Positions 4,316-64,000 of a stretch of 64,000 bases of DNA are shown piece after piece. Both the position numbers and the translations under genes were made by a program. The notes below the pieces were generated by a model, which was not told the DNA's origin, did not search any database, and saw only the letters and a program-made list of their open reading frames with translations. Source of the stretch: Candidatus Omnitrophota bacterium (lineage in GTDB: Bacteria > Omnitrophota > Gorgyraeia > Zapsychrales > Fredricksoniimonadaceae); NCBI GenBank assembly GCA_016201795.1, contig JACQCF010000010.1, positions 79,095 through 143,094 on the forward strand, written 5' to 3'. Position 1 is the first letter of the stretch. Each line of letters opens with the position of its first letter.

Positions 4316-4335
4316 TTATGTCATTGCGAAATGGT

Positions 4336-4429: not shown

Positions 4430-4443
4430 TTTCGGAGAATAAT

Positions 4444-6635: not shown

Positions 6636-6645
6636 ACCCGCCGCC

Positions 6646-6676
6646 ATCCTTTGCGTAATTTGGGCCGGTAAACTCT
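6646..6676. repeat. 31-bp direct repeat, copy 2 (downstream of AAA+ ATPase gene)
   Basis: ATCCTTTGCGTAATTTGGGCCGGTAAACTCT. With copy 1 it brackets the promoter plus ATPase gene (about 1.3 kb). Confidence 0.85.
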
Positions 6677-6682
6677 AACTAA

Positions 6683-6708
6683 CCCCGAACCTCGCAGGTT
6701 CGGAAAAT
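6683..6708. repeat. 26-bp stem-loop element, copy 1 (CCCCGAACCTCGCAGGTTCGGAAAAT)
   Basis: 7-bp stem CCGAACC/GGTTCGG with a 5-nt loop. Lies immediately after the stop codon (6710-6712) of the minus-strand regulator gene, between convergent genes. Confidence 0.7.
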
Positions 6709-6709
6709 T

Positions 6710-7681: not shown

Positions 7682-7711
7682 AGTTCATAGTTCATAGTGA
7701 ACTATGAACTA
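7677..7711. promoter_or_regulatory. Perfect 14-bp inverted repeat (TAGTTCATAGTTCA-TAG-TGAACTATGAACTA), candidate operator overlapping the start codon of the PurR-like gene
   Basis: 7681-7694 is the exact reverse complement of 7698-7711. Extended by TTCA at 7677-7680, giving TTCATAG x3. Spans the ATG at 7679-7681 and lies just downstream of the -10. Confidence 0.6.
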
Positions 7712-7712
7712 T

Positions 7713-7741
7713 AATATACCAAGATAAATTGAACTTGTCAA
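7713..7741 (-). promoter_or_regulatory. sigma70 consensus-like promoter (TTGACA-17-TATATT) for PurR-like gene
   Basis: On the minus strand: TTGACA (7736-7741), a 17-nt spacer, then TATATT (7713-7718). Sits directly upstream of the operator palindrome and start codon 7681. Confidence 0.6.
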
Positions 7742-7743
7742 GT

Positions 7744-7769
7744 CCCCGAACCTCGCAGGTTCGGAAAAT
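7744..7769. repeat. 26-bp stem-loop element, copy 2 (identical sequence)
   Basis: Lies immediately after the stop codon (7771-7773) of the minus-strand toxin gene, in the same position relative to the stop as copy 1. Confidence 0.7.
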
Positions 7770-7770
7770 C

Positions 7771-8028
7771 TTAAGGATTTTGTAATAAATCGTGGGTGCC
7801 GATTTTTCTTAAGAAAGCCGTATCGCCAATTTTTTGGTAGGTGATGCGGTAATTGATGTTGACGCGCAACTCCCAAACATCTTTATAACCTGTCATCTTT
7901 TTATGCTCAAGGGAAGGATGGAAGGGATTGTCTCTAAGAAGGGCTAGAGATTTTTTAGCTTGGGTTTGTACTTCACTGGGTAATTTTTGATATAGTTTGA
8001 GAAATTGTTTGGATGTTTCAATGATCAA
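7771..8028 (-). CDS. RelE/ParE-family type II toxin (mRNA interferase)
   Basis: 85-aa protein with RelE/ParE-like signature regions (SKQFLKLYQKLP...NPFHPSL...WELRVNINYRITYQ...IGTHD). TTG start overlaps the upstream antitoxin gene by 11 nt. Confidence 0.65.
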   Translation of the reverse strand: MIIETSKQFLKLYQKLPSEVQTQAKKSLALLRDNPFHPSLEHKKMTGYKDVWELRVNINYRITYQKIGDTAFLRKIGTHDLLQNP

Positions 8029-8311
8029 AATCGTAGTCCTTTTTACCGTCTAAAATATCAAATAACTCCTCAAGATTTTTAGTTTTTGTGACCCGTCCGG
8101 CTTTAATGTCTTCCTCCGCTTCTTTTTCGCCTTTTTGCCATTCTGGCGTGAAGAAATAAGCTTGATCTTTGGGAATGGAGACATGAGGTTTTAAATAAAT
8201 GCCGTTGTGAACAATTTGCACATCCAAATAATCATTTTTGTGTAAATGAAGATTCTTGACCACTTCTTTTGGAATAGCAATTTGGTAATTAGCGCCAAGT
8301 TTTCTAAGCAT
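8018..8311 (-). CDS. AbrB/MazE/SpoVT-family antitoxin (start reassigned to ATG 8311; track ORF extends to TTG 8335)
   Basis: N-terminus MLRKLGANYQIAIPKEVVKNL fits the SpoVT/AbrB swapped-hairpin fold motif. AGGAGG lies 9 nt upstream of ATG 8311. The TTG at 8335 overlaps the predicted -10 box, so it is unlikely to be the start. Confidence 0.6.
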   Translation of the reverse strand: MLRKLGANYQIAIPKEVVKNLHLHKNDYLDVQIVHNGIYLKPHVSIPKDQAYFFTPEWQKGEKEAEEDIKAGRVTKTKNLEELFDILDGKKDYDFDH

Positions 8312-8334
8312 GTTGATCATCCTCCTTTGATTCA

Positions 8335-8362
8335 ACTATATCATAAAATATGGAAATGTCAA
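8335..8362 (-). promoter_or_regulatory. Promoter for antitoxin-toxin operon (TTGACA-16-TATAGT on minus strand)
   Basis: Minus-strand TTGACA corresponds to + strand 8357-8362, and TATAGT to + strand 8335-8340. Followed by AAGGAGG and ATG 8311. Confidence 0.5.
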
Positions 8363-8850: not shown

Positions 8851-11800
8851 ATGAATAAAAACGAAGAATTCAATCAAAAAACCCCCCAGGACGATGGTGG
8901 TTTTGCTTTTATTCCAGAGAATATAGATAAAAGCAAAAAATCAGATTTCCCCTCGTTGCAGCCTCCAGAAAGCATTTCCCCAGAGCAGGTTACGTCAATT
9001 AAACCGGAAATTCCTTTAGCCGACAAAAGGCCGTTTGTGAGCAATTTCAAACAATGGATCAGGACGGTCGCCATCGTGATTCTGGCGGTGTTTGTGCCGG
9101 ATCAGGTGAGCTGGGCATTTGGCTATAACCCAACGGTGCTGTATAAAAACCTGCCTATTGCCCAGGCGCCGTTGACTGGGGTAGGGGCGATCAATGATCA
9201 CCCCCAACAGGCAAGCGCCCAGGTTGCCGGTTCGGTGGAATACTTGCTCAAGCAGATCCAGGATAAAGACCGGCTGAGGGTACAATTAAATTTGGATAAT
9301 CAGCCGGTCAGTCAATGGTCAATGGTCAATGGTCAAAATATTCTACCATCCACTATTCACCCTAAACCATTAACCGTTGACACCCGCACCACGTTTGATC
9401 AAAACAACATTGCCAAAATTACCCAGTGGCTCTCTGATCCCAATCTCAATGTTCTTAACTGCGGGGTGTATGCCCTGCAGGAAGTGCTGGCCAAGAAAGG
9501 TATCAACCGCTCCCTGGAAGAAATTTCCGTGCTGACGGTCTCCACGGATTTGCTGGCCAATATCATCAAGGTGGGCGAGCCCAAACTCAAGACCACGTTG
9601 TTTGCCATCAGCAAAGTCGGCTCCGCCCTGGGGCTTAATTACCAGGCGCTTAAAGTCGAGGCCAAAGAGGAGCTCAATTTACCCGCGCCTTTTATCGCCC
9701 ATTTAAACAGCGAGCATTTTGTGACGGTCAAAAAGGTCAGCGGGCACAAAGTCTTTATCGATGATCTTGGCCATCCGCAGATTGTTGAGCGCGCCGAGTT
9801 TGAGAAAAATTTAGACGGGTTTGTGTATACAGAAATTCCGTCAAGTGTCATTGCGAGCGAACACAGTGAGCGAAGCAATCTATTAGATTCTCATCAAAAG
9901 ATTGCTTCAGTCGCTACGCTCCTTCGCAATGACACAGCCATACAATACGAAATCGTCCCCGAAGCCATGCAAGCCTTTGTCTGGGGCGACAAGTGGCGCG
10001 ACAGGTCGCAGAACCTGCCGGGGTTGTTTAACGCCGAACAGTTTGCCATTACCCAACTCACCGCAATCGTGGGAGCCTTTTGCCCGGTATGCGGCCTGGC
10101 CATGACCGTTGGTTATCAAGCTGCCAACGGCGCATCCATGGAGCAAATTGGAATGACCATTGGTATCGCCGTGGCGATGATGGCCTTATCAGCAGCGGTC
10201 GGCGCGGCTAGCAACAGCGGCGGGTCTACTACAGATGCCGGAGGGACAACTGGCACTGGAACAACAGGCACCGAGGTCACGGGAACAACAGGCACCGAGG
10301 TCACGGGAACAACAGGTACGGAAGTCACCGCTGGAACAGGCACACCAGTCGGTACAGGAGTTGGCACTGCAACATCTACAACTCCCACCACTTTCGGGGG
10401 CCGGTTTTGGGGCAATTTTACAGGCAACTTTACTAAACCGGTTTTAAGCGTCGGAAATCTTACCATGAGCTTCGTCGGCATGGCCGCCAGCAGATTGGCG
10501 GGGGACATAGCTACGATTTGCGTGCTGGAGGGAGCCTGCGATCAGACCACCGGATTTATTTTAAGCACCGCGCTTTCGATTGGGTTAACCGTTGGGGTCG
10601 CGTCTGTCGCTAATTTCGGGAAAACTGCTCCTGTGGATGCCAGCAAAGATACACTGGCTAATGGCGGCACAGAATTTGACGCTCAGTACGTTCATGATGC
10701 TGTTGCCGGCGGCGCGAGCCCAGACGATGCCACCTTTTGGGCCTGGTTTGATGGAGCATCAGAAAAGCAAGCTATGTTAATTGGGACGGAAGTCGCCAAA
10801 TTTTCAGGAAGTTTCTCAAATTTCGCAACAGCTTTTGCCAAAGGTCTTGCCAAAGGCCTTGTTTTAGGCGCGGTCAAAGGCATTGTGTCATTGGAAGTCA
10901 CTCAGGCCGTCAACAGCGCCATCTGCCCTCATCAAAATAAATGCAGTGAAAGCGATAAAATTTTGTCGCAGACCCTGGGCACGCTTCTGTCTTCCGTGGC
11001 CTCCGATGTGGCGGTTGCCACGGTGAGGTATATCGGCGATAACATTTCTAAGGGAGCAGCCGGTTTCGGCAAAATGCCGGGAACCCAACCAGGAAAAACA
11101 GATGCTTTTATTGCTGCGGAAAATAAAGTCAAAGATATCAGCAATACGCAGGAGTATGAAACTGCAATGGAAAAGGCTGGGGATGATTGGTTCCGTCAAA
11201 GATACGATAAAGCCATTAAAAATGGCGAAGATCTTAGCAAAATAGATTTTGAGGGGGGCGTTCAACAAGCGGAACAACAGTGGAAGGCTTCCACCAATCA
11301 AGACAACTTTTTTAAGGGTGAACTCGGTTACATGGCAAACAATAACGGCAGCGAAGGCGAGTGGCATCCAGCCAACTTCTTTAAATATACGGGGGTGATT
11401 TTAAAAGCCGACCTTCCCTTTATCGCCGGTCAGCTCACCGGCGGGGCCCTGCGCCTGGCCGCGGCCCAGATGGGCATTAAAGCTGACAGCCAATTCTCCC
11501 AAGGTTTTGCCGCAGCCGGTAACCTCCTGAGCAGTGCAGCTATTCAGTATGGGTTTGACAAAACTTTCAGAGAGAGGCCTTTGCTTGACTTTGATAATGG
11601 AATGAAAGGGTTCAGCTCCAGCATCATAGGAGGTATGGTCATGCTGGGCGCTACCCAGGCGGTCATGTCCATGGGATTAATAGCTTTAGAAGGCGCCATC
11701 GTGGGCAAGGCCCCGGGCAGAAATGCTTCGGCCAGACAACTGCGCGATTATGAAAACAATTTGGCCGTATTTCGAACCACGTTTTTGATCGACACCAGTT

Positions 11801-17800: not shown

Positions 17801-20800
17801 TAAATTATTTTGTCGGAAGGGCCTCCTCGGCTTTTGTTCAACAAGTAGCTGACAGGTATGTTTTGAATCGTGTCGCCACATTTGCTGCCGGTAATGTGGC
17901 TTTAGGAAACACATTAAATTTTATGGCCAATGGAAAGCTTTTATCAGGCGATGAGAATCTTAAAGCCGCATTGTTTGGGGCTTTAGTTTCCCGTAATGGC
18001 CTATTTACCCTGCCAGGCAAAGGAGAGTGGGGAACTTTTGGCAAAGAATTATTATATAAAGGCCCTTTCAGTAAGGCCTGGTATAACCCTGCTAAATGGG
18101 GAGCAGCGACGGTTTATTTAGGCATTCCTAATACATTTTCTTTGGTCTCAGGAAACGGACTTCTTCCTCTTAATACTAACATAGCCTTAAGCATGGTTGC
18201 CTTAAGTGCTCCCTTATCAAAGAATTTTACTGCTGCCGGAAAGAATCTGACAGGGATCGCCGGAATACAAAATCATATATACACCCAAGCTTTATTGTGG
18301 GGTCGTGTTGAGGCTGGTGTGGATATTTCCATGAAGGCTTTACAAGGCACGTCAACGAGCTATTACGATGTAGGAGCGTCTTTTGCGACGGGATCTTTGA
18401 AAGGTATGGCTTTTGGTGGTTTAATTGGCACAGCTGCTGAATTGACTTCCTCCGCCCAAGCAGCAGAAAAATTAAACAGACTTAATGGATATGTCCAAAA
18501 TCCAGTGATACGATCTGTCGGGGGAGTGGCAGCAGTACCAACAGTATCCTTCTTATTAAAAACATTAGATGGCAAGGGAACATTTAGGGAAAACCTCAGT
18601 CAAAGTTTCTCATTGGAAAACATGGTTGCCGGAGCCATTATTGGTGGTTTTGCTTCACCTTCCGCGATGAAAATGAATGCATTGTCCCGAACTCTTTATG
18701 GAGCGGGCGTCGGCAGTGCCGCTAAAGTAGCTCATGATTATATTGAAACTAAAAGTCAGGGACGAGATTATTTTACTGGTAGAGGAGGGAAATTTGTTGC
18801 CAGTACAGTGAGTGGGGCTGCCTTAGGTGCTTTGACAGCAGGATTCGCGGGAGGCAATAAAGATATTGTGGGAACATTGAAAGGATTTAAAGAACCATCC
18901 AGGTTATTAGAAGCTTCCGCTCAAGGCGCCAGAACATGGGTCGGTGTTTCGCCGGCATTTACCGTTGGTGGAGCGTTATGGGGAGGATATTTCAATCGCC
19001 TTGAACAATGGATAGACCACGGCGATATGACTGGAACACCTTGGATGCCTGTCCAGGTTGGCCTGGACGAAAGAGATAATCCTATTCAAAAGGAGCTGTT
19101 TAGTAAGAAAGGAATGAAAGTTTTAATTGAAGGAGCTATTCAAGGACCTAAATCTGGTCTGTGGATGGGTCCCGGCTTAAGCATCATCCAGGTTAAAGGA
19201 TCAAAAGTTCCTGAATCCGGCACATTGGGCAGAGCAGTTTATCGTCTTCAGAGACCATTTACGACAGGAAATGGTGCTGAACTTACCAATGGCACTTTGA
19301 ATCGCGCTTGGAGCAATTTTGTTTATATGCCAGGCGTGGTCACGGGCATAAAGGATGTATCGAACTATTTAGCTAATGAAGGGAAATACTCTCTAACTTC
19401 TTTAGCCAATACCATTGATGGCGCAACAGCAGAACAAAGACCAGATTACAAAGTACTTAGCCCTACTGAATTATCTTATGCGGGTTGGACAGGCATGGTG
19501 ACTGTCCCTTCTTATGGTAGCAGAATGGATTATTTGGCCAAAGATTGGGGCGATGCCATGGCCAAGAATGATTATGTACAAGCCGCCAAAATAGTCGAAC
19601 AGATGAAACAAATAGATCCAAATAGCACACTGGTTCCTCAGATGCTTGCCCAGGCTAAGATGGGAAGTTTAAATCAGCTGAGGGCAAGGCAGCAGGGCTT
19701 GGACAAACCCTCCGTTGAATTGGCAGGACAAATCGGTAAGGCTCAAGGAGAAATCGATCAGCTTGTAAAACAAGGGTTGGCCTCCAACGATTCCGCAACT
19801 CGCGAAACTTTTCAGAAACTAAGCAATAATATCGAAGCTAGTCGACAAGCGGATATGGCAGATATTGTCTTACGCTCTGGATCAGAAGTAAAAGACCATG
19901 CAGAGAACCTTTATAGTCGAGCCAGAGAAATAGATCCGGATAACGCTCGAGGTTATTATTTGCGTGAAGCACGCACACGTGCGATGGAATATACACCTGC
20001 TGTAGGTGGAGAAGTTGTGACGAAGGCTGTGTTAGAACAACGTTCACAGCAGGATGCCAAGGTAGATGCTCTGTTGAACAAAGCAGATGCGTTAGCTAAG
20101 GGAGACGAAGCAGCCCAGCAGAGTATCAATGAGATTCGTCAAAACATTTCCGGCTGGCGTGAATATGAAAAATCAATGGACCATAAAGCTAAAGGGGAAA
20201 TTAGAGAAAGTTTTGCGGCTCTCGATCGTGCACATCAAGCAGATCCCGGAAACGGGTTTTATAAACACCGTTTGGCGTATGAACAGCAGCAGTTGCTGGA
20301 AGATAATTTGGGCAAAACGGAAGCAGATTTTAAAGCCATGGATGAATTATATCAGAAAGCTGCGGGGAACATTGCAGAAGCCATCACTCTTTATGAAAAA
20401 GCAGGCCGTCCTGATTTGGTTAAAGAAGCTCAAGCCCTACAGACAGGATTAAAAGTAGGGGACTTAAGCCGTCAGGCAGGACGGTTGTTTATGGAAAATA
20501 AATTTGCTGAGGCACAGGCCAAGATGGAGGAAGCGATTGGTATAAATGCTAAGGATCCGCAGCTACATTTTCAGCTAGCCAATATCCTTAAAGCCAAAGG
20601 GGCAGATGAGGCAACCGTTATTAAAGCCCTTGAGACCTCCAGTGTTTTGTATGCCGATCAGGGCAATGTCGGGATGGTGCATGCAATCATCCAGACCATT
20701 AAAACTTTACAAGGCAAAGTACTAGGAAGGGCTACTTTGGAAAAACCAGCGGCTGCCCAAAAAGTAGCTATCGAGACCACCGGTCCTCCTACTGAGCCAT

Positions 20801-44800: not shown

Positions 44801-47800
44801 AGAATATCTCCAAAGTGTTGCCTGGCGTGACCAGCAAGTTACCGGCGGTGCTTAATCCAAATGTACAGATGATTCAGGAAAGTCTTGGGGTAGGCCGCAT
44901 CCAGATAGATTCATTGACCAATGTGCCGGCAGCTCTTAAAGACACTGTAGATATCAGCCGTGGTGTTGCAATGTTAACCCAAGAACAGCTCAACAGCATT
45001 GCGCATGATGCCGATGGGGTATATAGCCTTCAGGACATCCTTTCTGATAAGCTCAAACGCGACGTGGTTTATGACAAAAACCATCATGAAATCGGCACGA
45101 TGATTTTAGGTATTGAGGGCAAGATTCTATTGGATCGTTTGATGAAAACAGAATGGCAGGTCCTTGAAGAAAATGATGAAGGCAAGGTCACGAAAGCTTA
45201 TTTGCGTACGTTTGAGCAAATTCTCGCCTTACGCGATGATCTTTTAAATAATAAGCATATCAAGAGCGTCAGCCGTTTGATGAGACCAGGCAAGCATGAA
45301 CTCAAACAAGTCATTTGGCTGGTGCCGATGACTATTGATATCCCTCGATTAGACGACAGTGGTGTCAGCGAGGAATATGAGATCATGCCGCAGGCCGACA
45401 TTTTTGCGAATCTCTTTAGACGTATTTTTGAACCCATTGAAAAATTCGCTATGCTACGAGGCTATGTACCTACAGCCCGGGATTTGGGCGTTAAGCTTGG
45501 TGATTATCCGATAGCCAGATTGTATGAGACCAAAGCGCTCGTCAACGGCCAAAAACAAAGCTTGGTGCGGAAGGATGACTTAAGACCTGATGGCACGGTG
45601 TACCGTAGCGGCAAGTTTACCTACGTCGAGGATAACAAGGTTAAAGATGAAAGAACTCATGCTAAAACAATTAAGCTTATCAGTAGCACGATTATGTTTG
45701 AAAACGGCATCAAGGCCATCAATAGTTATAGTGATGATACATTAACCATTGTTGACAAGAAATTCCTTTCAGGCGTACCTGACATGCCATCTCAGAGCCG
45801 TTGGGTTACTGCGCGTGATGAACGTATTCTGGAGAAAAAGCTGGATGAGAAAGAAACGCGTACGCAAAAAGGCTTAAGGGAACATATATGCAACCTTATT
45901 CAACCGGTACAGCTGGCAGACACTAATATAGTAAATCAGGTTAATGACGCCATCCGTGATGCCCAATCTGATGCGTTTTTATTTAACATAGCGACGGCAT
46001 ACCAGACACAAGTATTTGACCACCGTAATCAACAGTCATTGTCTCAAAGGGTGGAGTACTATGATGCCATGGGCCATCTGGTTGTCCAAACAGAGGGTGA
46101 CTGGACGGTTATTAACAGTTACCAAAAAGATCAGATCAAGTCCACGTACGAGTTCTTTAAAAATGAATTTGTTTGGGAGAAGAAATTAAACACATCCGGC
46201 AATAAAAGTTTTTCCAGTGTCGTTGATGCATTATTGAGCAAGGCAAACGATGAAGCGATTAAAGAGTTTAACGAAAAATCAGGATACGTCTACAATAAAA
46301 AATCCGGTGTTGTCGCTCAAGAAGACACGAGCGGCGCACGGGTCAAGGATACGACTCAACTGAGATTATATGATGTTACTAATGCACTGGGTGGCCAGTA
46401 TAGAGAATATCAAAGAATAGGCGATACCTTAGGAAGGGCCTTTGTCAGAGAAGTTGATATGCTTAAACCAGGTACGAATGCTGCAGAGGGTACTCATACA
46501 ACATTCTTTAGTTTCAATAATAATGTTGTCACACGTTCCTACACAGTGAATAAGGCTGGTGAACGATTGGAAAATGAAGCCCTTCGCACCACAAAAGAGG
46601 GTAGCGCGGAAAATGATGCCAAGAACTATCTATATAACTATACAAACTTCAGAGGTGTTGAAGGCATCAGAGCTAAATTTTTATCTGACCCGACAGGCGT
46701 GCCGGTCTGGGATCAAATAGCTAACAAGAGAACATACAATAAATTTGGGAAGAGTATTTATAGATTGAGAAACGAACGCATTGAATATGACATTATGCCG
46801 GATGGTTCAAGAAAAGCAGAATTCCTTCCGATATTCGCCCACACAGATTATGCCTTCTTTAAGATTAACTTAGGTCAATACTTTGGGGAGTTTGCTTCTA
46901 AACGTCAGCCAATGAGTGTCAAGACCTTTGATGCCGCGGCTAATCATGTTGACAGGATAGAGTTCCTTGTCAAAGGACGGGACGGTGGGGAGAAATTCAG
47001 AGTATTCTTGAATGATCATTTAGGTGTCATTAATGAAAAAGAAATACAGGCGATTTACAATAAAGACACAACAGGCCCGACTGTATTAACGGCCGCTAAG
47101 AATTGGCAACCCGTTATCCTTAACCTTTCTAACTTTAAAAATAATCTGTTGAATGCCAATAGAGAACTTGACCTGAAACAACTGGCTCAAATTGGCGTAT
47201 CTTATGGTAACGACGAAGGCAATAAAGAAGGCGCTGAAATCTATATAACAGAATTGCAGTTTGTTAAGAAAGATGGTTCTAAGATCCCGGTCGGTTTAAT
47301 TGCCGGTGTCATTAACGCGACAGGCAATGTCCCAACCTTTAAGTTTAGAAAGCCGATGGGAGCCAATCCAAATTCTGATACCGACTTCTTTACCAATGAA
47401 GTTTACTTCACCGAATCAATGCCTTGGTATATCCGCTCAGGGATAACAGTTACGGTTAATAAGAAGGATCCATTAGATGACCGAGAAATTGGTACGCCTC
47501 AACCTGGCAATGTCGTTGGCATCAGCGATACCGAATTATCACCGGATAACCTGTTGGTTTCCCGCGACTTCTCCATCTTACCCGGTTCAACGGGATTCAA
47601 GGTCGTAAGGCCGCAAGGACAGGTTTATTTCAATGGATACTTTGAATCACAAGACAAATATAACGGCGGCGAACGTTTCAATGACTTAAACGTCTGGCTC
47701 GATTTCGTTATCGCTGATGATAAGGGCATGCCGCGATTCTCGATCAATAGCAAAACAGACGAGCTGCAATCTGTTTATCGTTATAAGGTCACGACCGATC

Positions 47801-50800
47801 ACGATCTTCTGATCGCCAAATATGACATTAAGCAACAGGCCATGGTTGTCAAGAAATACGGCAAGAGCCAAGATGGTATCGTCCGCTGGGAAATGAAAGG
47901 ATTCTTTGACCATACTCTTCCGATGAGCAGTCGCAAGCTTGTGGACAGTTTTGGTACCTATGTCTACGACGCAGTGGGTAAGAATTATGATGATGATCAC
48001 ATCCTCTTCCCATGGACTTGGGAACGGTCCAATGAAAGGCACGGCCGATTCTACAGAATGTTATTCGGGTCAGCCGATGCGCCAAAGGAAGATGTTCAAA
48101 AAATGATCACGGATGATGATCCAGATTTCGTTAAATGGGCTGCGGCTATCGAGCAAGCCAAAACGCAAATTGACTCCATGCCAAAATTAAGAATATCATC
48201 GGTTCAGAATGGCTCAGCCCCGGATGAATATACATACGGACCGGACAGGGCTATTTATTCGTATAGTAATACATTTTTCTGGTGGGCATTAGGTGCCTTT
48301 GTAGCATTCCTTATTTCGACATTAGTATTAGTTTATAAACAATTGCGTCTTCGTAGAAACAAGATACAAGGATTAAATGCTGAAAGTAAAAATCCAGCTC
48401 TTCCAGCAGTGCGCTATACAGAAGCTCAAGTGAAGGCAGCGGTCCGCAGTATATACGAAGATGTTCAGGCGCTTGATTTAGGGCACCTTACTGATCCTGA
48501 CTTTGTCGATACAATTGTTAATCAAATGAAAGCCCACAAGCAGATCAAGACACCGGCCGGTTCTCCTGATGAGTTGGAAGCTATTGATGTTGATAAAGCG
48601 GTAATTTTGGTCAAAGATCCCAAGGCAGCATCAGGCGTCCGTGAAGTTAAATTTAAGCTCTTTGTCTGGCAAGTCATATTTGGGAAAAATCAGCTTAAGG
48701 AACTTGCTTCCAATTCAGCCTTTATGGCTCGATTGGTGAAAGACGCGGAAGATATCTTTGAAAATCGGGTGGATGTGGTCAAATCGAATGATGAGGAACC
48801 GCAAAAGGTGAAACGCAACAAAGAAGTTATGCTGGTGGTCAAGGCCTATAATTCTCTTTGGAGATTAGTCCTCGGTCACCAATTCTCATTAATCCACATG
48901 AACTTATTAAAACGACGGTTTTCCATCAAGGTCGAAGACGTCAACTTCTTATATGAACACTTTGATGAGCTTGTTCTCGGTAAAGATCCACAAAACGAGT
49001 ATATGGATCCTGAAGAAGCCAAGCGCCTTAATCCAAACAGAATTCTTGAAACGGTTGATTATCTTAAATCCAACCAACAAGCATTAGAGCGGTTTACTCA
49101 CAATATTTTAAAAGCTATTCAGAAAAAGAGAAATCAACTGTACCCCGGGCCTGTCAAGAAGACGATTTTAATGGCTCTTATTCCTCTTAAGTTAATTTGG
49201 GATTTAGGGAAAGGCATTTGGAATAAAAATTACAAAAACGCCACCGGCGCATCATTCTGGCTGACGATCATCAGCGGATTAGGCGTTTATGCCGCTCTGA
49301 CAGCCAAGATTTGGATTGCCGAAGTATTACCGCATTTTGTCTATATTGCGCGCGTTTTAGCTTCCGGCGCCGGATTCGACGCTACCTTCGCCTTTTCACC
49401 ATTGGTCGTTGGACTAAAAATACTTATCTTGCTGTCGGCCGGATTGGTGATCATGTGGGTTGTCGGTTCGTTCGTTGCCTGGGTGTCAGGCCGTATCGAT
49501 AGGGCCTTCCCGATCAAAACAATGAACGACATCGTGACGGAAATGCCCGGCGCATTAGATAAGCTGTTAAAAGATAATCTAGAACGACAAAAAGATGTTA
49601 TTGACGATTGGAACGCGATGATTGAAGATGCCCGGCGCGAGTATAGAATTTCTTCAGAGTTAGCTGTAGGATTAAGCTTCCCAGGTAAAGATAGTAGAGT
49701 AACATTTGAACATATCTTTGGAAACATTACGGTTAAAGATTTACAAGCAATCGAAAAGGCCCTCAGGCGCGAAATCAAGAGCTTTGCCAATAATCTCTTG
49801 CGTAAAACCAAAATGCCTGAAATCGCACCAATCTATGAACATTTAAAGAGCTTGTGGGTACGCTTGGTCTGGAGAGGCGACTCATTCTTCACCTCTTGGT
49901 CAGAATTAATTACGAAGAAAAATTGGAACGGATTATCGCTTATCGGGCAGGTCAGAAAAGGGTATAACATCGCATGGCAAATTTTTGTCAACGAGATGGC
50001 AATAAATCCAAAGTTCAATGCTTTAGTTAAAAAAGAGGTGAAGTGCTTAGCCAATGAAGACATTGAAGATGTTATGGAAAGAATCAAAAAGATCTCGTAT
50101 GACGATTATCAATATATCGTCTCAGAAATTGAACTATTCGCTAATGAAAGATTGCAAACTGTTTGGAAGACCATGCGCAATACTCTTCGTATCCGACGGG
50201 CTTATCGCAGACAGTTAGTCAAAGCCATCCAAGAAAAGCAAGAGTATGTTGAACATAAATTAGGAAAGATGTTTGCTCGCATGACACCTGATGTATTAGG
50301 GGCTTATGTTCAATATAAGGATGCGCTAGAGACCGAGTTAAAGCCGACCGCCCAATCAGCTGAGCAGTTCCGGTCAGGCTTGACAGCGGAGCAATTGGCC
50401 TTTGAGCGAGAAAACGCGGATATCATTAAGGCCTTGGATAGCTTAGTGAATGAGAAGTTCCAGCCGATCCTAGCCGTTGCCGCGAGCAAGAGCAAGGTGC
50501 AAGGCTCTGAAGATAGTCAAAATGCTCTGGAATATGCCAAACGCTTAAAGTGGGATGCAGTATTTGTTCAAGAGAATTCCTTGGCCGAAGAAGGCGTGGG
50601 AAGCTATAAAGGGTTCTTCTTGGGGCAATTGCTTTATCATGCCAAGGGAGAAGTGGTCCTCTTTATAGACGCTGATACGGAAATCACTTACTCCAATGCC
50701 AGGAAGATGCTTAATGCTCTCACAGAGTTTAATGATGAGAAGCTGGGTATCTTAAACTTCAAACAATATATTTACAACAGAGATTATAACTTGGCCACCT

Positions 50801-53800
50801 GGCTGGGTGGTACGGCTATGCGTGCCCTTTGGAGCCCGACCTTTAGAACACGTAATTTGGTTGGTAATCCGACGTTCCTCGGGCACGGTGCTATGATCCG
50901 AACTGATTATCTCAGAGAATTCTTCGGGGCCCAGCCGGATTATGTTGCTGAGGATATCATGATCGCTTTACTCTTTAGAAAATATGGAGTTGATGTCCGT
51001 TATGCGGATTACCTGGAAATGGGTGAAGGTATTGAGCAGTCTCTCGCGGACTATATGTCCCCAACCACCAAGAAATGGGCGCAGGGTACAAAAGAAGTTA
51101 CCAAAGGGCAAGGATTCAAACAATTAATATGGACCAAAGAAGTTCCGTTGAACGAACGAATCGACATTTGGTTACATGGTGTCGGGTTCTACACGATCCT
51201 CCACATGTTAGTTCCTGTAACTATTGTCCTCTATTTTGTTAATAATATGATTGGAATTAATCCATTTGCAATTATGGCGTATTTCATCGCTTTTGTCGGT
51301 ATGGCGGCCTCCATGGGGATCAATGCATATCTTTTGGTCGATAGGCTGGAAGGCGGCGAAGACGACGGCGGCATTAAAAACGCGTTCAAGAGTTTCGGCC
51401 TGTTCTTAGCTAAGGGCGCCCTCTTCTTCTGGACGCTTTTGATCGGAAACCAGATCATGGGCGTCATCATCGGTTGGATGGAGAGAGCCGAGTATATCAC
51501 CAGTAAGAAAGGCCCTGGTTTAACCCAAGAGAACCCGCGCCAGATGTACAACAGAACAAGGGGCGCAACGATTATGGCAGTTGGATTAGGATTGTTCATC
51601 GCCTTGTATACGTTAGCGGCAAACTTCATTATATCGCTTCCGATAGTTGCTTATGACCAGGAGTTCCCGTATCAGGTTATTGCTTCCATTCTCTATATTA
51701 TCGTTCAGATCAGCTGGGTCGCTTCGATCTCCTTATTTAATCCGGGACGAACGTTGCTTGGAAAAGCCAAAGATATCCTCTATCATATCGGGTATGCCTT
51801 AGAAGATATTGTCAACTTCTTGATTCGTGATCCGTTTATGAGACGTGTAGTGTACAGATATGTTTATCCGCTTTATCGGCTTATCGCAAATGGCTTTGAC
51901 AGCGACAGAACGGTTGTTGATATAGCCAACCGTCTATTAGGTCAAAAGAATGTTGAGTTGGATGAAGCAAATCTGAAGGCAATCTTCGGAGAAGATAAGG
52001 TCAATAGAGTCGCCGGTGTGTTTAAAGCAGGTCAGTTTGGCCAACAAGGAAGCCGTGCCATGACACGCAGCGGCAGGGAGAGGGAAAGAGAATTGGTATC
52101 TAAGATTATCTATGAAGATATGATGCGCATGGGACGGGATTTAGTTAAGGTCTTCTACGAAAAGAATAAAGTTGCACCAAATGACGATGAAATTGAAGAA
52201 TTTGCACAACGCTGGATTTATGAAGGCGGTAAATTTAACAGGGCGGTACGTAAACTCAATGATTATTTATCTATCCGGGTACCGAAACGGGAATTCTCTA
52301 CAACATTCGACCGTTTAGTTGATCACTTGTCATCAACGCAATCATTCTTGTTGGCTATGCAGGCCTACCGCCGCGTTATCGGCAGCGAAGAGAAGTTTAA
52401 GGACGATTACACCAAATTTTTATCTAACGGAAATAAAGCCTATGATCGGACACAAATTTCACAGAACAGCACAACAAAGCTGAGGGTATTAGCCGGTACC
52501 CTGGGTGTTGGGTTTGCAGTTATAGGCTTTGCGGTCGGATTAACGGTTATCGCTTATGCCCTCTTAGGCGTGTCTTTAGTTATACTCATCGGCAGTGCGT
52601 ATCTTCATATCATGGGCATCAGCACGATGGGTGAATTTATGCAAATGGTTAAAGGTCAAGCTGTACTCCACGGCTCCATTACAATAGACGCTGATGTTGA
52701 AAAAACTTTAGAGAATATCTGGGCTGATCCTTTCAAATCACTCAACCAGTTGGCTAATGAATTAACCATTGAATACCTAATGAATGAAGAACCGCGCGAT
52801 GCGGGTGAGTTAAGTTATGACCAATTCAAGCGACGTATCATTCAGGTTGTTACCGGGAACGAGTTAGACTTTGGCAACCCTGAAATCGCCAAGGCGGCAA
52901 AGACGGAAGCCAAAGAATTTATCATCCGCGTTTTAAGAGAATCGGATCAGGTCAAGCTTCCGGATGATGTCGGCGCCGAGGTCTTTATTAAGGAATTTTA
53001 TAATCGATACATTTTATCCCAAGCCGAAGTCAGCCTTGTTTATTCAACAGATAACAACGGTGAAGGCGTTCTGGATATGAAACTCATTGAAGAGATGCTG
53101 GTGATCAATCCTAACTTAAAAGTTTACCTTGTACCTAAAAGCCGGCCGGTCAGAAATGACTTTTCTTATATGGACGCCAATCGGGTTATGGCTATGACGT
53201 TAGAATTGGCCCGAAGACGAGGCGATGTTAATAAATATGACATCTTCAAGAAATTAAGAAGATTTAAAGGAAATTCAGAAGAAGGACGATTCCATATCTT
53301 TGAGCATGGCCCGATGGTTCAAGGTCTTGATCCGACCGGCATCAGTAAAGAGTTCTCATTCTTATTAAGAGAAGGACGAACGATTGAAGAAAGTCAACGT
53401 CGTGGTAATAAACTTGTCGATAAACGAGAAGTGGTTATGTTCAACAAAGGTCAGGCCAATGCCGAAATTAAGGGATGGCAGGCACCAGCCTATCTCGGGT
53501 TCATGGTCAAGGGCCGTGTTGCCGAAAAAGCTCACGGTGTCAGTAGGGACCGTCAACCGCAGGCTTCGATATTTGTCGGATTACGAGCCGGTATTCCGCA
53601 TTATATAGATTGGGCGATAGCGCACCGGGCGGATTTTGATCCTTATGCAGAGAAGTTCTTAAGCTCAGCCAGGCAGACAACCAAAGATTACATCAATGCG
53701 ATTATGGGTGCGAAGTTCAGAAAGATGTTGGGAGATAAGTTTGGTTGGGATGTTGACTTTGGTAAAAATAAATATAAACCATTAACAAATGAAATATTGT

Positions 53801-56800: not shown

Positions 56801-59800
56801 CAGTCATCGGTGAATATCTGCCCAACTTCCAGCTGCAGAGTGTTGCCGGAAATCAGGAATTAGAAGAGTATATTAGTAAGATTGACGGCGCCGGTGCCGG
56901 CGGCGGCGGCGGGTTCACCTTTGTCACCTTAGTGGGACATAAGGAAGCGGCCAAAGGCAAGGGTATTGTTGCCGCCTATTCACCGACTTCCGATAACGGC
57001 GGGTCTACCGGGGAATTACGTATCGTGTTTATGCCGTTTAGAGGAACGACCGTGGCTATGGGTGATGGTATTCAAGTTACGCAGATGAACTTAGACATGA
57101 CGAAACATAAAATTTTGGAGATGCGTGTCGCTTCGGTAGGAACCAATGTTTTTGACGAAAAGTTCGGCGGAAGAGAAACAATGACCGCCACTGTGTTAAC
57201 CAAGATTATTGAGGAGATTAACAACCCGACAACGGATGACGGTACCAATCTTCTGGATACCCCGCTGCCGGTATACTTCTTGGCTAATCAATTAGCGCTC
57301 TCTAAGGTCTTTGATAAAAAGTTTCTTTTGGCCAAGACAGAAGAAGGCCGCCGCAGATATCCCAACCTTAATTTAAGAGGCGCGTCCATCCGAAACCTCG
57401 TTTGGATGGCCATGGCTGAACGGTACAATATCTATCCTGATGTTAGAGACCCTGTTGAAGCCGGGAAGAAAAAGGTCGAAAAGATGGAAGATCCGGAATA
57501 TGAGCAGTATAAGAAAGATTTGGCAGAGCGATTTAAGGCCTTCCAATGGATGCTTGAGAAGGCGACCACCACTCAATTTAAGGATCATGAAGGAAAGTAT
57601 ACCGGACAGGTTCACCAGGCCAATCCAACGATCAGCGGTTCCGAGATTGCCGTAACCTTTAAAGCACCGGTGACCGAAGATGAGATCAAGGTCATCGAAG
57701 CAAAGCTGCATGACTTCCGTAAATTCCTTTCAGAGGATCGACGTACGATTTATGGGCAGAGATTTATTGATAAACTTGAGCCGCCATATACAGCTTATCA
57801 AAGAGAACGTGATGTCGAAACAAATAATAGAGTTGTTGATTTTGAGGCTATGGGATCCTTCGTTCCTATTCATGAATCAGAGAGGGCCGCTGATGAAACC
57901 GAACGAACTATGAATCCTAAGAAATACAGAGGCCAAGAGATAGAATACAGACCGATGGCTCAACCAGGATGGTATCTGAAGATCAACACCGAGATCTTTG
58001 TCAATCAGGAATATATCGATACGCTTAAGGGAGCTAAGGTTAATACATTCGGTGCCGGTAGTTTGTTCAGCAGTCAGCTGCCTCAGTTAATTACCCGAGG
58101 AGCCGTTGATGCCTTGCTTCTGACAAAAGCGATCAATATCTTTGTCTTTAACAACGTTGCCATCGAAGAAACAATGAACATGAAGGCCATTGATATCATT
58201 AAATTTGTCGAAAAGCTGGCCTCACGGCATGTCTCTGATGACGTAGCCAAGATCATCGCCCAAAGACGCGGCTTGCAGGAGGGTGAATATTCCAGAGGAC
58301 AAGACGGCGAAAATAAAGGCGTATATTTCACGAAAGACAGCGATTACCTCATCCGCTTCGGCGATCTCTTTGACGGATATATTATTAACAAAGATGAGAC
58401 GCTGAAGAAAATTGAAGCGGAAATGAACAAGTTTAAAGATGAGAAAGTTGATGTGGCTCTGACAGTTTCAGAAGCGAAAAGAGCAGAGCTAATCGCTCAA
58501 ATACAACGGTATATTGTGATACAGCGAACTAAACTCGGTGAAGTTAATGCAAAGCTTGCGGCTTTACCAACCACAGATTTGACAGAGGAGCAACAGCAGC
58601 AAAAATCGCTGCTTACAGGGTATAAGGAATTCTATGAAGCTGACTTAAAGAAGGCTGAAAAATACATTGGGCAAATTACAGCGGAAGTTGTCAATGAAAG
58701 TCAATATAAACATGGGATATTAACGGTGTATGACGGCAGTGATGTTTCCTATGACGCCGAATTCAATAAGCTTGATATTGGTAAACGATATTTTGATGAA
58801 CAGGGCAATGACATTACCTGGATGTACAACTATGACAATCCGACCTATGGTTTCTACGGCGGTGGCCCCATGTGGATTGACGAAGAAGGAAACCGCTATA
58901 TAGAAAAAGGTTCGGATAACTTCTTCCGTATCATCGCTGACGCAGAACATTTTGAATACGTTGTCCCGAGCGAGAAGATCAGAAAAGAGTTGATCCATTA
59001 CAATAAGTATGTCCACTTCCTGTATACTCATCCGCTATTTGCTCGAAAAATCGGCGTTGATTTGACTGACCTTAAAGGCGACCTCGGACGGTTATCCTGG
59101 TATATCCATGACGGCCGTCTGGTGGGTGCACGGACCGAGGCCGGGCGATTTAGAGATGCCTTTGTCTTGAGTGATAAGGATAGGGAATATTTGGCCAAAC
59201 GTAATATCAAACATCCATATGAAGAAAATGTCCTCTCCTGGGTGCAAAAGCCTCTCAAAGCCGCCGGCCCGATTGTGGAGTTTGAAGATTTTGTGGCTTT
59301 GGATTCAGGACGCGTTAGCGCAATTATGACTGAGATCAAAAAATTACATGAAAGCATAAGAAAGCAATTCATCTTGTATTCCGGTCCGTCAGCGGTTGGA
59401 AAGAGCCCGCTTTGGAGACAGATGCAAAGGATGTATCCAGACACCTTCAGCCGAATCATCCTGTACCATTCAAGAGCTATGCGGCCGGGAGAAGGTGAAG
59501 GGGTTGATTATTACTTCCGGACAACTGAAGAGATTGAGCGTCTCGCTAAAGAGCAAGAAGATTTTGTGACCATGGATGTTTATGGGCAGATTCAGGGCAT
59601 TAACTTAAAAGACGTGAATGCGGCAGTTCAAAGCGGAAAGATAGCGATCGCTGAAGTCTCGGTTGATTGGGCGGATCATTTAAGAAAACTTTATCCGGAA
59701 ATCATCTATAGCATATTTGTTGCGCCGCTTAGCGATGTAGAAATAAAAGCCCGTGCCCAAGCCAGCGGAAAATCAGCGGATGAAGTTATCTACGAAGAGA

Positions 59801-62800
59801 TGCTTAATCGGCAGAATGAACGACACGCCGAGATGCCGACGGCAGAGGCCAAAAGAAAAGATCGGGCAAGAGCAGCGGTTGAAGAGATGGCCCGCAGAGG
59901 GGAATATGATGCCGTGGTTGTTAACGCTGACCTCAGAGATTTAAGCAGCTATGCTTCCCGCTGGGAAGGCTTGGAAGGACAGGCCTTGGTTGCAGAATTT
60001 ATGGCCTTGGTGAAGAAAGCCACCGCCTCCTTCCGTACCCGTCCCGGCAAAGAAGAACCGACCGATGAAGCCGTTCGTGAAACGATCGCCCAAATCGGTG
60101 GATTAGAACAAATGGCGGTTGTTGAGGATAAAGCCATTGAAAATGCGGTGAAAACATTAGAAAGACTTGGGCAACATGATGCGGCAAGATTATTAGAAAG
60201 AGCAGCCGAAATCGAAGAAGCCCATCAGGAAGCGCTCAGGTTTGAACATTTGGCCGTGGCTAACAGAGCCTTGAGGAACGCGGAACGTTTGGCCTTACAG
60301 GCTCGGGATGAAGCAGGGGCTCAACAGGCCTTAAAAGAATACGCAACGGCAATCACATTTTATCAGAAAGTCGATTCCGATGAGGCCAGGCAGAACCTGA
60401 AAGTCGCTCAAGCCAAAGAAAAGAGATTACGTAAGTCTCTCAAAGACTTCAAAGAATATTTTGATGTTATATCGGAGTCTGGTGAAAAGACGACAGAGAC
60501 TGTTTCCCGTTTTGAGGCGCATCAAAGAGGGATACGGCACGGCGGCATCAGTTTGATGGTTTTTGACCATGCTGGCCGTTTCCTGGGACAAATAAGGGCA
60601 GCGGACAAAGATGTCTTCCCATCGAAGCTTTCCAATGCCGCTGCCGGACACATCAAGGCCGGGCATGGACCCTATGAAACTTTATTGGCCGAAGGTCCGG
60701 AGGAAATCAGCATCGGCAGTAAGTCATTGGCATTGAATGAATCAAACGTCCACCAAATCGGCAAAGACTATGCCTATGATGGTTATCTGGAAATGTTTGA
60801 GTTTACTTATTTAAATGCCGCAGAAAAACAGGCGCTGGTTCAAGTGATGCAGGCGCGTTTGGGCAATCAGCAAGGCACAAAGACCCAACACATTCTGTAT
60901 GACATTAATGATGAATTATCGGTGATTTACCTGTTCACCTTCAATGCCACCCAACACCAGGCCTTAAATGAATTGGCGCAGGCCATCAGCCAGCAGACCG
61001 GGACTGGCCACGGCAATTATACCTATAATCGGGAGAAGAAATCTTTGTATGTTTACGCGCTCAACAGTCAGGAAGAAGATTTAGTGAATGAGATTATGTC
61101 GCAGATGAGAGGTGGTACACAGTTGCAGGAAACGGGTGAGGGCAAGGGCGAGGTGGCGGGATTGCGGTGGGTGGACTTTGATCATTTGGTTGAAGAATTC
61201 CATGCCCGTCCGCAGCAGTACACCGACGTGTTTGTTCCGTTGTTGACGGATGCACAAATCGTTGCACAGATCAAACAGGCGCAGCAAGCCGGAAACCGCA
61301 GGGTTTATGTGTTGGCCGATGTGGATAAAACATTATTACCTAAAGGTCAAACCTTACATGAACCTCAACAGGCCGCCATGCGTGATACGTTGGTGGGTGT
61401 TGTGGACGTGGTCACAAAAGCAGGTATCATTTCCGGAAATTCCCGTGCCGCTCAAAACAAACGCATCGTTGCTGGCATTACCGCAAAGGCCCGTCCCGAT
61501 ATTGACATGTATGTTAACGGTGGTGGCACATTGATGCAGTTGGCCGGCAACGACCAGTGGCAGAGCCGCAATATAGGCGGTGATTTGAAACAAGAACATT
61601 TGAATGCCGTGGTTGAAATTTTAACGGATCTGGCGGTGAATAAGAAGTTCCTGATGGATGAAGAAGAATTGGCAGCTTGGCGAGCGTATTTCAGTACCCG
61701 TCCGTCCGAGGGACCATTTAGCAACTCATTACCGGAAGGCTTCGGCCGTCGCCGCAATAAGGACTTTCATTTCGCGTTTGATTTCAGCTGGATCAACGGG
61801 AACAGCAATTTCAAGGTAGGTATTTTTGATGCCGAAGTTCTCGAAAACTCTCCGACGGACAGGAATTTACCGGTCACGGCTCCGTATGTCGAGACCCGTG
61901 ATGGAGTTTCATTCACAATTAAACCGTTATTAGGCTGGCAGGAATTGTTGCCTGACCGGGGCGAAGCGGCAGATATCCGTATTCGCTTGATTGAACATAT
62001 TGAACGCGAACTTGGCCGCCGTGGATTGGCCGGCGTTTATGAATTACGTCCGGGTGGCTCTTTGAGTATTGACGTGGTGCAGAAGGGCATTGATAAAGGT
62101 GTTGCGCTGTTGGATTTTGTCCGCCGTCATAACGTACGCCGGGTGAAAGTGTTCTCCGTCAGCGCCAATCCCCAGCGGCATGCTGCTTCCGTGCAGGGGA
62201 AGGTCACCTGGATTGGAGTTGGAGAACAAGCCACGCAGGCATTTTTACGCAAAGCCCTGGATGAAGGGACCCTGGCCAAGGAAGAGGAAGGGACATTGTG
62301 GTATATCGCCGACGAATTGAGCGAAAACGGTAATGACGTCCCGGCCGTGCTCGCCGCCGAAGCAGCCGGTCTGCTGGTTGTTCCGCAACCGGCGATTACC
62401 TCTAATCGCACGGCGGCCGAACGCAGAATCGCAGAGGGTGGGGTCAAGATTCGTCATTATGCTCCGCATACTTTGGAAAATTACGCGCAGCAACTGCAAT
62501 CAGGGTTCGAGGCCATTGGCGTGAATGCCCGGTTTGAAGTGGCGCAAAAAGGTGAAACGGCTCAAGCCTTCGCGGCACGGATCCAAGGACAAGTCGCGGA
62601 TGTGTCGATTGTGCAATTCCATGGCGCGGAAAAAGAAAAGCCGGTTGTTGCTCTGGATTATCCCGGCGAAGTTGTTGTGTTGATCCACCGTCCGGAAGAA
62701 GTTCTTTTAAGATACGGCTCGGCCAAGGTCCAGGAAATGTTAGCCAAGGCTAAGGCCATCATTCTCTTAGGCCGGGCGATGCGCAAAGAATATCAGCAAT

Positions 62801-64000: not shown

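Follow-up and report, generated by a model that had tools for sequence, protein, structure and literature searches.

A stop-free reading frame of at least 55 kb, very likely the 5' part of a multi-enzyme giant gene of Omnitrophota

RESULTS

A reading frame of at least 55 kb

We analyzed a 64,000-nt stretch of DNA (hereafter, the window) from contig JACQCF010000010.1 of a Candidatus Omnitrophota bacterium, and in particular a giant open reading frame (ORF) that fills most of it. The Omnitrophota are an uncultured phylum and are probably predatory or parasitic. The giant ORF is located as follows:

8851..64000, + strand: 5' part of the giant ORF, with 18,383 or more codons, no in-frame stops, and no internal repeats

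When frame +1 was translated from 8851 to 63999, none of the 18,383 codons was TAA, TAG, or TGA. The start codon is the ATG at 8851-8853, and an in-frame TAA (8842-8844) lies just 5' of it. Codon 18,384 begins at base 64000, the last of the window, and the giant ORF is still open at this point; because the frame is unclosed there, 55,149 nt is a lower bound on its length. These results agree with the original prediction for this DNA, which had claimed a single uninterrupted ORF of at least 55 kb and at least 18,383 codons that is open at its end, and which had placed the ATG just after the TAA; both positions are correct.

The other five frames of the window have 823 to 1,713 stops each, and over the same 55-kb stretch the two other frames of the + strand have 951 and 1,602 stops. 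Given the base composition, the probability of a stop is 0.0565 per codon, and the probability that no stop would occur across the giant ORF is about 1e-464. GC content is higher at the first codon position than at the second (GC1 > GC2) in all 19 of the 3-kb tiles, so the coding signature is unbroken along the giant ORF. Significant matches to protein families in this frame span from amino acid (aa) 204 to aa 17,336. Homologous proteins start at an aligned methionine (MNKNEEF versus MAKNEDF), which supports ATG 8851 as the start codon. Since the frame is free of stops, has GC1 above GC2, and contains in-frame family matches, we conclude that it truly codes for protein all the way from the ATG to the end of the window. 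An alternative genetic code is irrelevant here, since TAA, TAG, and TGA are all absent from the frame.

Could the giant ORF be an artifact of assembly or sequencing, with several genes misjoined or with stops lost by error? A chimera would need a frame that stayed open by chance over 55 kb, which has the tiny probability given above. In relatives that were assembled independently, the corresponding ORF likewise stays open to the ends of their loci, and the domain matches are all in one frame along the whole length. A palindromic element, which is described below, is repeated at two places within the giant ORF, and this is one observation in favor of an artifact. Besides this ~91-nt element, there are no long repeats to mislead an assembler. 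The other observation in favor of an artifact is that GC content at the third codon position (GC3) is unequal between segments. Overall, we consider an artifact to be extremely improbable. GC3 varies from 0.35 to 0.54 among segments of the giant ORF (~0.35-0.36 at 14851-23850 versus ~0.52 at 29851-44850), and these differences suggest a mosaic history, with modules of different origin or age fused in one frame.

The size of the chain would also fit a giant repeat adhesin or fiber, or a megasynthase that makes nonribosomal peptides (NRPS) or polyketides (PKS). For an adhesin, there are also long G/S/T/N-rich, cysteine-free stretches that are typical of secreted surface proteins. We searched for protein families with Pfam, first in tiles of 5,000 aa and in two sets of 1,000-aa tiles that were offset from each other, and then in focused tiles, and we used NCBIfam as well. 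No Pfam tile had a match to Ig-like, cadherin, or RTX families. When we compared the giant protein to itself with BLASTP, we found no internal repeats at E < 1e-5, and Tandem Repeats Finder reported just two arrays, of 75 and 62 nt. Because neither approach found real arrays, the giant chain is not a repeat adhesin, and the original prediction was right that this is not a simple repeat array of that kind. Similarly, condensation, AMP-binding, PP-binding, and ketosynthase domains had no match in any Pfam tile, whether of 1,000 or 5,000 aa, so we rejected an NRPS/PKS megasynthase too. Taken together, an adhesin or a megasynthase is very unlikely.

An N-terminal signal anchor and a C39 peptidase

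The N-terminal head of the giant protein contains:

9067..9123, + strand: N-terminal signal anchor, aa 73-91 (from a hydropathy scan; kept in all homologues)
9460..9825, + strand: peptidase C39 domain, aa ~204-325 (PF03412, E 2e-13, 50.6 bits versus a cut-off of 22)
10042..11688, + strand: hydrophobic cluster, aa 398-416, 433-451, 569-587, and 928-946 (from hydropathy and alignment)

Both the signal anchor and the C39-like peptidase had been anticipated in the original prediction. The anchor's hydrophobic segment is flanked by LADKRPFVSNFKQWIRT on its N-terminal side and by YNPTVLYKNLP on its C-terminal side. Because the N-terminal flank is rich in lysine and arginine, the anchor is predicted to be N-in/C-out, and the C39 domain is therefore predicted to lie outside the cytoplasm. 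In the C39 domain, Cys204 (within LNCG), His289 (within EHFVTV), and Asp305 are invariant across seven aligned sequences (alignments A1 and A2). From the motif context (NCG and EHF), we infer that these three residues are probably the catalytic triad. The hydrophobic cluster after the C39 domain includes a low-complexity, G/T/A-rich linker and a conserved ICVxxGAC motif.

We compared this domain to the C39 domains of PCAT and ComA, which are bacteriocin-exporting ATP-binding cassette (ABC) transporters. Like them, it matches PF03412 over the cut-off and has invariant Cys, His, and Asp positions. However, it is not fused to an ABC transporter (no Pfam tile of the giant protein matched ABC_membrane or ABC_tran); instead, it comes after a signal anchor. 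It is also predicted to be extracytoplasmic, whereas the C39 domains of PCATs are cytoplasmic. Finally, double-glycine substrates are not recognizable within the giant chain: leader-type motifs were not enriched relative to locally shuffled sequence, with 2 strict matches versus 0.8 expected and 2 loose matches versus 2.8 expected.

Relatives of the giant ORF

The first 1,200 aa match six proteins, all of which contain PF03412; three of them are from NCBI and are named Candidatus Omnitrophota or Omnitrophica. Identity to these homologues, whose genomes are metagenome-assembled, is concentrated in aa 1-421 (46-63% in alignment A2). A pattern scan of the GTDB species representatives with this alignment identified 28 loci, of which 19 are titled Candidatus Omnitrophota or Omnitrophica, 8 "uncultured Planctomycetales" (third-party assemblies), and 1 Elusimicrobia. 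In 26 of 30 loci, the homologous ORF was open to the end of the DNA that we fetched, and wherever the full 10-kb flank was fetched, the related ORFs reach ~3,500-3,780 aa. The relatives are collinear with the window's protein at aa 520-1,250, 1,900-2,650, and 3,087-3,690 (out to aa 3,688). Within these regions are two conserved modules whose fold was not recognized:

11362..12600, + strand: conserved module, aa 838-1250 (tblastn, alignment A4), common to 10 related Omnitrophota loci
18109..19920, + strand: conserved module, aa 3087-3690, common to loci L001, L007, L023, and L027

Profiles of these two modules had no relative among PDB sequences. At the other end of the available protein, when genome and metagenome contigs were scanned with peptide patterns from the last 600 aa, no relative came up.

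In one of the related loci, L001, which is on a public metagenome contig, the gene appears to be split: its C39 gene apparently ends at 1,251 aa (L001 13700-14041). This end coincides with a run of nine G (G9), after which a different frame stays open, so we consider the split to be a frameshift and not the true end of the gene. It follows that at least some public "C39 proteins" of 1,000-1,450 aa are truncated or frameshifted heads of giant genes.

A putative divergent SecA-like motor

The giant protein also contains a putative ATPase:

31348..33780, + strand: divergent SecA-like or superfamily 2 (SF2) ATPase motor, aa ~7500-8310 (from motifs and a profile search against PDB)

The motifs are a Walker A (APNAAGKS, aa 7533) and ILDEADDLLLLEVTYIASEP (aa 7674-7693), and a weak Helicase_C-like match (E 2e-4) marks the second lobe at aa 7932-8036. 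An exhaustive HMMER search with the motor found 19 relatives among 1.84 billion representative proteins. The longer relatives are fragments of 3,100-5,600 aa, and 9 of the matches are shorter than 1,000 aa. Word-indexed searches for homologues, using either the motor region or alignment A3, returned nothing.

A3 combines the corresponding regions of 13 of the relatives, and we used it as a profile to search the sequences in PDB. The best match was SecA2 (4uaq, E 3e-5), and several further SecAs matched at lobe 1; at lobe 2, SecA from Thermotoga maritima, Vasa, and Mfd align. In Pfam, the window's motor did not match SecA_DEAD, and just 1 of the 13 family members did (E 0.004). Because of this, we describe the motor as an SF2-type ATPase whose nearest solved relative is SecA, and not as a demonstrable member of the SecA family.

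The motor resembles SecA in its Walker A and DEAD motifs and in having SecAs as its top profile matches in PDB at lobe 1. The TYIxS segment that follows the DEAD motif also resembles the DEARTPLIIS of SecA. It differs from SecA in several ways. First, for the window's sequence, none of SecA_DEAD, SecA_PP_bind, and SecA_SW scored over its family cut-off, and the preprotein-binding, scaffold, and wing domains were not detected. Second, the motor is embedded in a giant chain and belongs to a family with very few known members (the 19 relatives mentioned above). The original prediction of a DEAD-like ATPase in this region thus proved correct, and the ATPase can now be described as SecA-like but very divergent.

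Other modules and the unannotated remainder

Besides the head and the motor, searches of Pfam, NCBIfam, and PDB identified these modules in the giant protein:

19888..20610, + strand: TPR repeats, aa ~3680-3920 (in a 300-aa tile, TPR_11 at 30.9 bits with a cut-off of 26.8, and TPR_14 at 27.8 bits with a cut-off of 23.5)
30406..30780, + strand: possible class I methyltransferase that would use S-adenosylmethionine (SAM), aa ~7186-7310 (weak; motif I is VLDWGAGSG, aa 7204-7212)
46957..47139, + strand: CBM30-like carbohydrate-binding match, aa 12,703-12,763 (PF21582, E 7e-4, under the cut-off; a hint only)
50656..51732, + strand: GT2 glycosyltransferase, aa 13,936-14,148 (PF13632, E 1e-15; PF13506, E 2e-5)
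52684..53241, + strand: DUF89/ARMT1-like damage-control phosphatase, aa 14,612-14,797 (PF01937, E 3e-14; NCBIfam damage-control phosphatase, E 9e-8)
58000..58287, + strand: CofD/YvcK-like domain, partial, aa 16,384-16,479 (PF01933, 29.6-31.1 bits versus a cut-off of 30; TIGR01826, E 2e-8)
59371..59820, + strand: guanylate kinase, aa 16,841-16,990, with P-loop GPSAVGKS (PF00625, E 2e-17; TIGR03263, E 6e-24)
60478..60858, + strand: NUDIX-fold domain, aa ~17,210-17,336, IDI/YfcD-like (NF002995, E 9e-9; NF011922, E 5e-6)

The guanylate kinase domain matched 25 guanylate kinases in PDB, down to E 3e-14, as well as four MAGUK guanylate-kinase-like domains. According to hydropathy, the GT2 domain runs into a cluster of ~5-6 hydrophobic helices at aa 14,108-14,294, an arrangement also seen in processive synthases that are embedded in the membrane. 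The CofD/YvcK-like and NUDIX domains are weaker assignments: for the latter, the further matches were YfcD in PDB (E 1e-3) and PF00293 (E 0.007), and a regular expression for the canonical NUDIX box had no match in the giant protein. The putative methyltransferase matched Methyltransf_23 (E 0.01) and Methyltransf_28, Methyltransf_11, and Methyltransf_25 (E 0.04-0.18), and nothing significant was found for this region among PDB sequences.

The original prediction had described a succession of different modules, and the family searches bear this out. In particular, it had listed TPR-like repeats, a GT2 with a cluster of transmembrane (TM) segments, and a guanylate-kinase-like module, all of which we recovered. 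For the SAM-methyltransferase that it also listed, the motif is present but the matches to Pfam are weak, as just described. It had proposed a HAD-like phosphatase as well, but a regular expression for the HAD motif DxDxT had no match in the giant protein; most likely, this was the DUF89 domain, which is a phosphatase-like module of another kind. So most of the listed modules were found, while the CofD/YvcK-like and NUDIX domains had been missed.

Together, the recognized modules cover ~13% of the chain, and ~87% has no match to Pfam, NCBIfam, or the sequences in PDB. The PDB searches were run on 5,000-aa tiles, and for three of the four tiles, they returned nothing.

Genes upstream of the giant gene

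The genes that precede the giant ORF are:

263..2977, + strand: upstream neighbor, a 904-aa Cys-rich protein (29 Cys, or 3.2%) without a known family
3458..5349, + strand: two T2SSF genes, at 3458-4315 and 4444-5349 (PF00482, E 8e-15 and 9e-17)
5415..8335, mixed strands: window-specific insertion of ~3 kb, downstream of the T2SSF pair and upstream of the giant gene, which contains the next four genes
5415-6635, + strand: DUF4143/AAA_14 ATPase
6710-7681, - strand: helix-turn-helix (HTH)-phosphoribosyltransferase
7771-8028, - strand: RelE/ParE-like toxin
8018-8335, - strand: AbrB/MazE-like antitoxin

A small gene that ends at 3446 lies between the 904-aa gene and the T2SSF pair. Each T2SSF protein has ~290-300 aa and a single T2SSF domain, and given this size and domain content, we take them to be TadB/TadC-like platform proteins. 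Two of the related loci, L001 and L002, have the same gene order before their C39 ORFs: a gene of 913-929 aa, a gene of ~120 aa, and two T2SSF genes. By tblastx, the T2SSF genes are ~70-77% identical to those of L001 and L002, while the 904-aa neighbor has only short, weak matches to its counterparts. Genes of ~900-930 aa lie upstream in these relatives at L001 4784-7537 and at L002 1862-4603 and 4624-7413, with a weak hint of Big_7 in L002. Further upstream in L001, there are small genes with matches to class III signal peptides.

In L001 and L002, just ~290-430 nt separate the T2SSF pair from the giant gene, and the ~3-kb insertion is absent. A look-up of the exact DUF4143 protein had no hit on record. 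Around this gene and the next one, 31-nt direct repeats are present: those at 5324-5354 and 6646-6676 (97% identical) bracket the DUF4143/AAA_14 gene, and another pair of 31-nt direct repeats (97% identical) at 6683-6713 and 7744-7774 brackets the HTH-phosphoribosyltransferase gene. The repeat at 5324-5354 takes in the end of the second T2SSF gene.

Membrane topology and the possibility of a polyprotein

A crude hydropathy scan (Kyte-Doolittle window mean of at least 1.6) found 29 hydrophobic windows in the giant protein, which merge to ~24 segments. These are clustered at aa 73-946, 6,305, 9,067-9,530, 13,143-13,542, 14,108-14,580, and 15,490-15,713. If we count only the strong segments, then aa ~950-6,300 would lie outside the cytoplasm; this stretch, which includes the TPR repeats, is rich in G, S, T, and N. 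By the same count, the segment with the putative methyltransferase and the motor would be in the cytoplasm, which agrees with their dependence on SAM and ATP.

The enzyme modules are heterogeneous and non-repeated and are set apart by clusters of TM segments. This arrangement, along with a C39 domain that retains Cys204, His289, and Asp305, would fit a true polyprotein: C39 or other proteases would cut the chain into independent enzymes and surface proteins, and the ORF would be a device for co-expression and co-export. The original prediction had likened the multi-enzyme organization to a polyprotein, which is a speculation, and cleavage by C39 was also raised as an idea by West-Roberts et al. 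(10.1101/2023.11.21.568195). However, the giant chain is not enriched in double-glycine leader-type motifs, and the C39 domain is predicted to be outside the cytoplasm, apart from the enzyme modules, which are presumably cytoplasmic. Overall, we consider it unlikely that the giant protein is a polyprotein.

Cysteine is nearly absent after the head

The giant chain has just 10 cysteines in 18,383 aa (0.054%), while base composition at the three codon positions would predict ~257. They are at aa 204, 411, 414, 557, 563, 692, 698, 6377, 12347, and 13732. That is, seven of the ten, including C204, are in the first 700 aa, and three are in the remaining 17,685 aa. The genes that neighbor the giant ORF encode proteins with 0-3.6% cysteine.

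The same pattern is seen in the relatives. In the giant ORFs of loci L003-L030, the tails have 30 cysteines in 55,067 aa (0.054%), versus 0.95% in the heads of the same ORFs. The eight longest motor-bearing fragments have 0-3 cysteines each in 1,400-5,600 aa, and the second ORF of L001 (14041-23756) has 0 cysteines in 3,238 aa. The word "cysteine" is absent from the main texts of the papers on giant or huge proteins that we consulted (including PMC10066038, 10.1101/2023.11.21.568195, and 10.64898/2026.06.07.730766).

A palindromic element within and outside the giant ORF

The window contains four copies of a ~91-nt palindromic element that resembles miniature inverted-repeat transposable elements (MITE) or repetitive extragenic palindromes (REP):

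2980-3091: intergenic copy
4332-4422: intergenic copy
9845..9935, + strand: in-frame, stop-free copy in the giant ORF, aa 332-362, SVIASEHSERSNLLDSHQKIASVATLLRNDT (hairpin of -43.5 kcal/mol, z -7.9)
29929..30019, + strand: second in-frame, stop-free copy in the giant ORF, aa 7027-7057 (hairpin of -41.9 kcal/mol, z -7.7)

We described the element by the pattern GTCATTGCGAR-N14-16-GAAGCAATC. Across the window, the pattern of the half-unit matched 8 times versus 0 expected. All four copies fold to long hairpins, with energies of -42 to -64 kcal/mol and z scores of -6 to -9. Rfam had no match to the element or to anything else in the window.

The copy at 9845-9935 is an insertion relative to four of the six homologues. 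Another homologue, P0004, has a different repeat-derived insert at this site, and L007 has repeat-derived units at 3080-3111, 4367-4402, and 6591-6624, with a half-unit near this site. Because both P0004 and L007 have sequence derived from repeats in roughly this position, we suggest that there is a hot spot for insertion after the C39 domain. For the copy at 29929-30019, which is upstream of the motor, the window's sequence has no similarity to P0007, so this copy is a candidate insertion only.

The closest analogy is to the palindromic elements of Rickettsia, which are protein-coding palindromes that occur as in-frame insertions within genes (Ogata et al. 2000, according to the review PMC10969869). 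In both cases, short palindromes are found both between genes and in frame within them, where they add a peptide without breaking the frame. The window's element differs in its sequence, its lineage, and its length (~91 nt versus ~150 nt). With only four copies seen, mobility of the element is a candidate property only.

DISCUSSION

Giant genes of Omnitrophota

The original prediction stated that genes of this size are very rare in prokaryotes. This holds for prokaryotes as a whole, but the lineage considered here is an exception. ORFs of over 20 kb are present in 77 of 116 genomes of Velamenicoccia and are common in other classes of Omnitrophota too (Seymour et al. 2023, PMC10066038). In the same study, the giant ORF of Velamenicoccus archaeovorus LiM encodes 39,678 aa with 42 TM helices, its peptides were up 3-fold in attached cells, and the Tad locus was expressed (PMC10066038). 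West-Roberts et al. (2023) described proteins of up to 85,804 aa, whose features include an N-terminal C39 close to the signal peptide, numerous TM helices, and SecA DEAD domains that are divergent and lack the scaffold and wing (10.1101/2023.11.21.568195). The domain set of their "Archaeovorins" comprises glycosyltransferases, methyltransferases, peptidases, NUDIX, TPR, and HEAT, and a conserved locus that resembles a type II secretion system (T2SS) lies upstream of the giant genes (10.1101/2023.11.21.568195). Most recently, Nielsen & Lui (2026) catalogued 5,761 proteins of at least 10,000 aa, up to 147,155 aa, and defined a "multi-enzyme" class as well as an architecture cluster of 24 proteins with PF03412 (10.64898/2026.06.07.730766). 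Of the long proteins, 94% have TM helices or a signal peptide (10.64898/2026.06.07.730766).

These studies used different size thresholds: ORFs of >20 kb (Seymour et al.), proteins of >=10,000 aa (Nielsen & Lui), or proteins of >30,000 aa (West-Roberts et al.). At 55,149 nt and 18,383 aa or more, the window's gene passes the >20 kb and >=10,000-aa thresholds. It resembles the giant genes of Omnitrophota in having relatives in that phylum, an N-terminal signal anchor with a C39 domain, and many TM segments (~1 per 770 aa, versus ~1 per 945 aa in V. archaeovorus). In the class, the peptidase that follows the signal peptide or anchor is of either the C39 or the S8 type. It also has glycosyltransferase, NUDIX, TPR, and possibly methyltransferase modules in common with them. 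A sequence that is mostly unannotated and a Tad/T2SS-like locus directly upstream are found in the window as well, and the putative motor would fit the divergent SecA DEAD domains of the class. Apart from the SecA-like nature of the motor and the glycoside hydrolases and HEAT repeats discussed below, the window's gene agrees with the described class on each feature that we compared. We consider it very likely that the window's gene is the 5' 55 kb of a membrane-anchored, multi-enzyme giant gene, of the "Archaeovorin" type of West-Roberts et al. and of class 1, or the PF03412 cluster, of Nielsen & Lui. As this class has been described since 2022-2023 and is now catalogued in thousands, the giant gene as such is not new.

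The window's gene also differs from the described class. It is well conserved with the sequences that we retrieved over the first ~420 aa only. Its glycosyltransferase is a membrane GT2, while GT5 and GT1 are reported to be the commonest. The guanylate kinase, DUF89, and CofD/YvcK-like domains are not named in 10.1101/2023.11.21.568195 or in 10.64898/2026.06.07.730766.

Several other results weigh against our assignment or our view of the protein. First, glycoside hydrolases and HEAT repeats are typical of Archaeovorins, but neither was detected in the available 18,383 aa. Second, outside the motor, we could not align any relative past aa ~3,700, and in our analysis the placement in Omnitrophota depends on synteny and on homology within the N-terminal ~1,250 aa. 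Third, the motor is not matched by SecA_DEAD, and nor are 12 of the 13 family members. Fourth, structure predictions were unusable, with pLDDT of 38 for the N-terminal head (from seven sequences) and 36 for the motor (as a single sequence). Fifth, the parity of the hydrophobic segments puts the catalytic domain of the GT2 on the wrong side of the membrane, so at least one segment must be miscalled. Sixth, what we propose for the function of the giant protein is inferred throughout.

A tentative model for the function of the giant protein

In our working model, the giant chain would be a single polypeptide that crosses the cytoplasmic membrane many times. The G/S/T/N-rich, cysteine-free stretches (aa ~950-6,300 and ~9,500-13,100) would lie outside, where they may form a "coat" for the cell or a contact surface, and the modules that depend on ATP, SAM, or nucleotides would be kept on the cytoplasmic side. 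The SecA-like motor might assist in the export of the giant protein's own extracytoplasmic segments. The GT2 and the nucleotide-handling modules may make or remodel a surface glycan, and the C39 domain, which is predicted to be extracytoplasmic, may trim the giant chain or another substrate. Together with the adjoining Tad-like pilus, the giant protein could take part in attachment to, and attack on, a host or prey cell, as has been proposed for Velamenicoccus archaeovorus. As a whole, this model is tentative, and we think it somewhat more likely to be wrong than right.

A more speculative version would link several of our observations. The chain might be threaded through the membrane via its own SecA-like motor and then cut by its own extracytoplasmic C39 domain, to yield a set of enzymes and coat proteins bound to the envelope; cysteine would be scarce throughout the family as an adaptation to the unfolded export of chains with tens of thousands of residues; and palindromes that preserve the frame would indicate that the frame is under selection. 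We view this as quite improbable.

Implications

Giant genes of Omnitrophota are among the longest genes known in any organism. The locus in the window adds an example that is clean and free of repeats. Its start is well defined, its C39 head is intact, and it has a recognizable motor and several modules that handle nucleotides or glycans. The tolerance of palindromic elements in frame and a cysteine content of ~0.05% after the head domain are simple, testable observations at the level of the family, and they are unmentioned in the giant-protein papers that we consulted. Should the avoidance of cysteine prove general among the thousands of giant proteins catalogued so far, it would limit the possible models for the export and folding of these chains.

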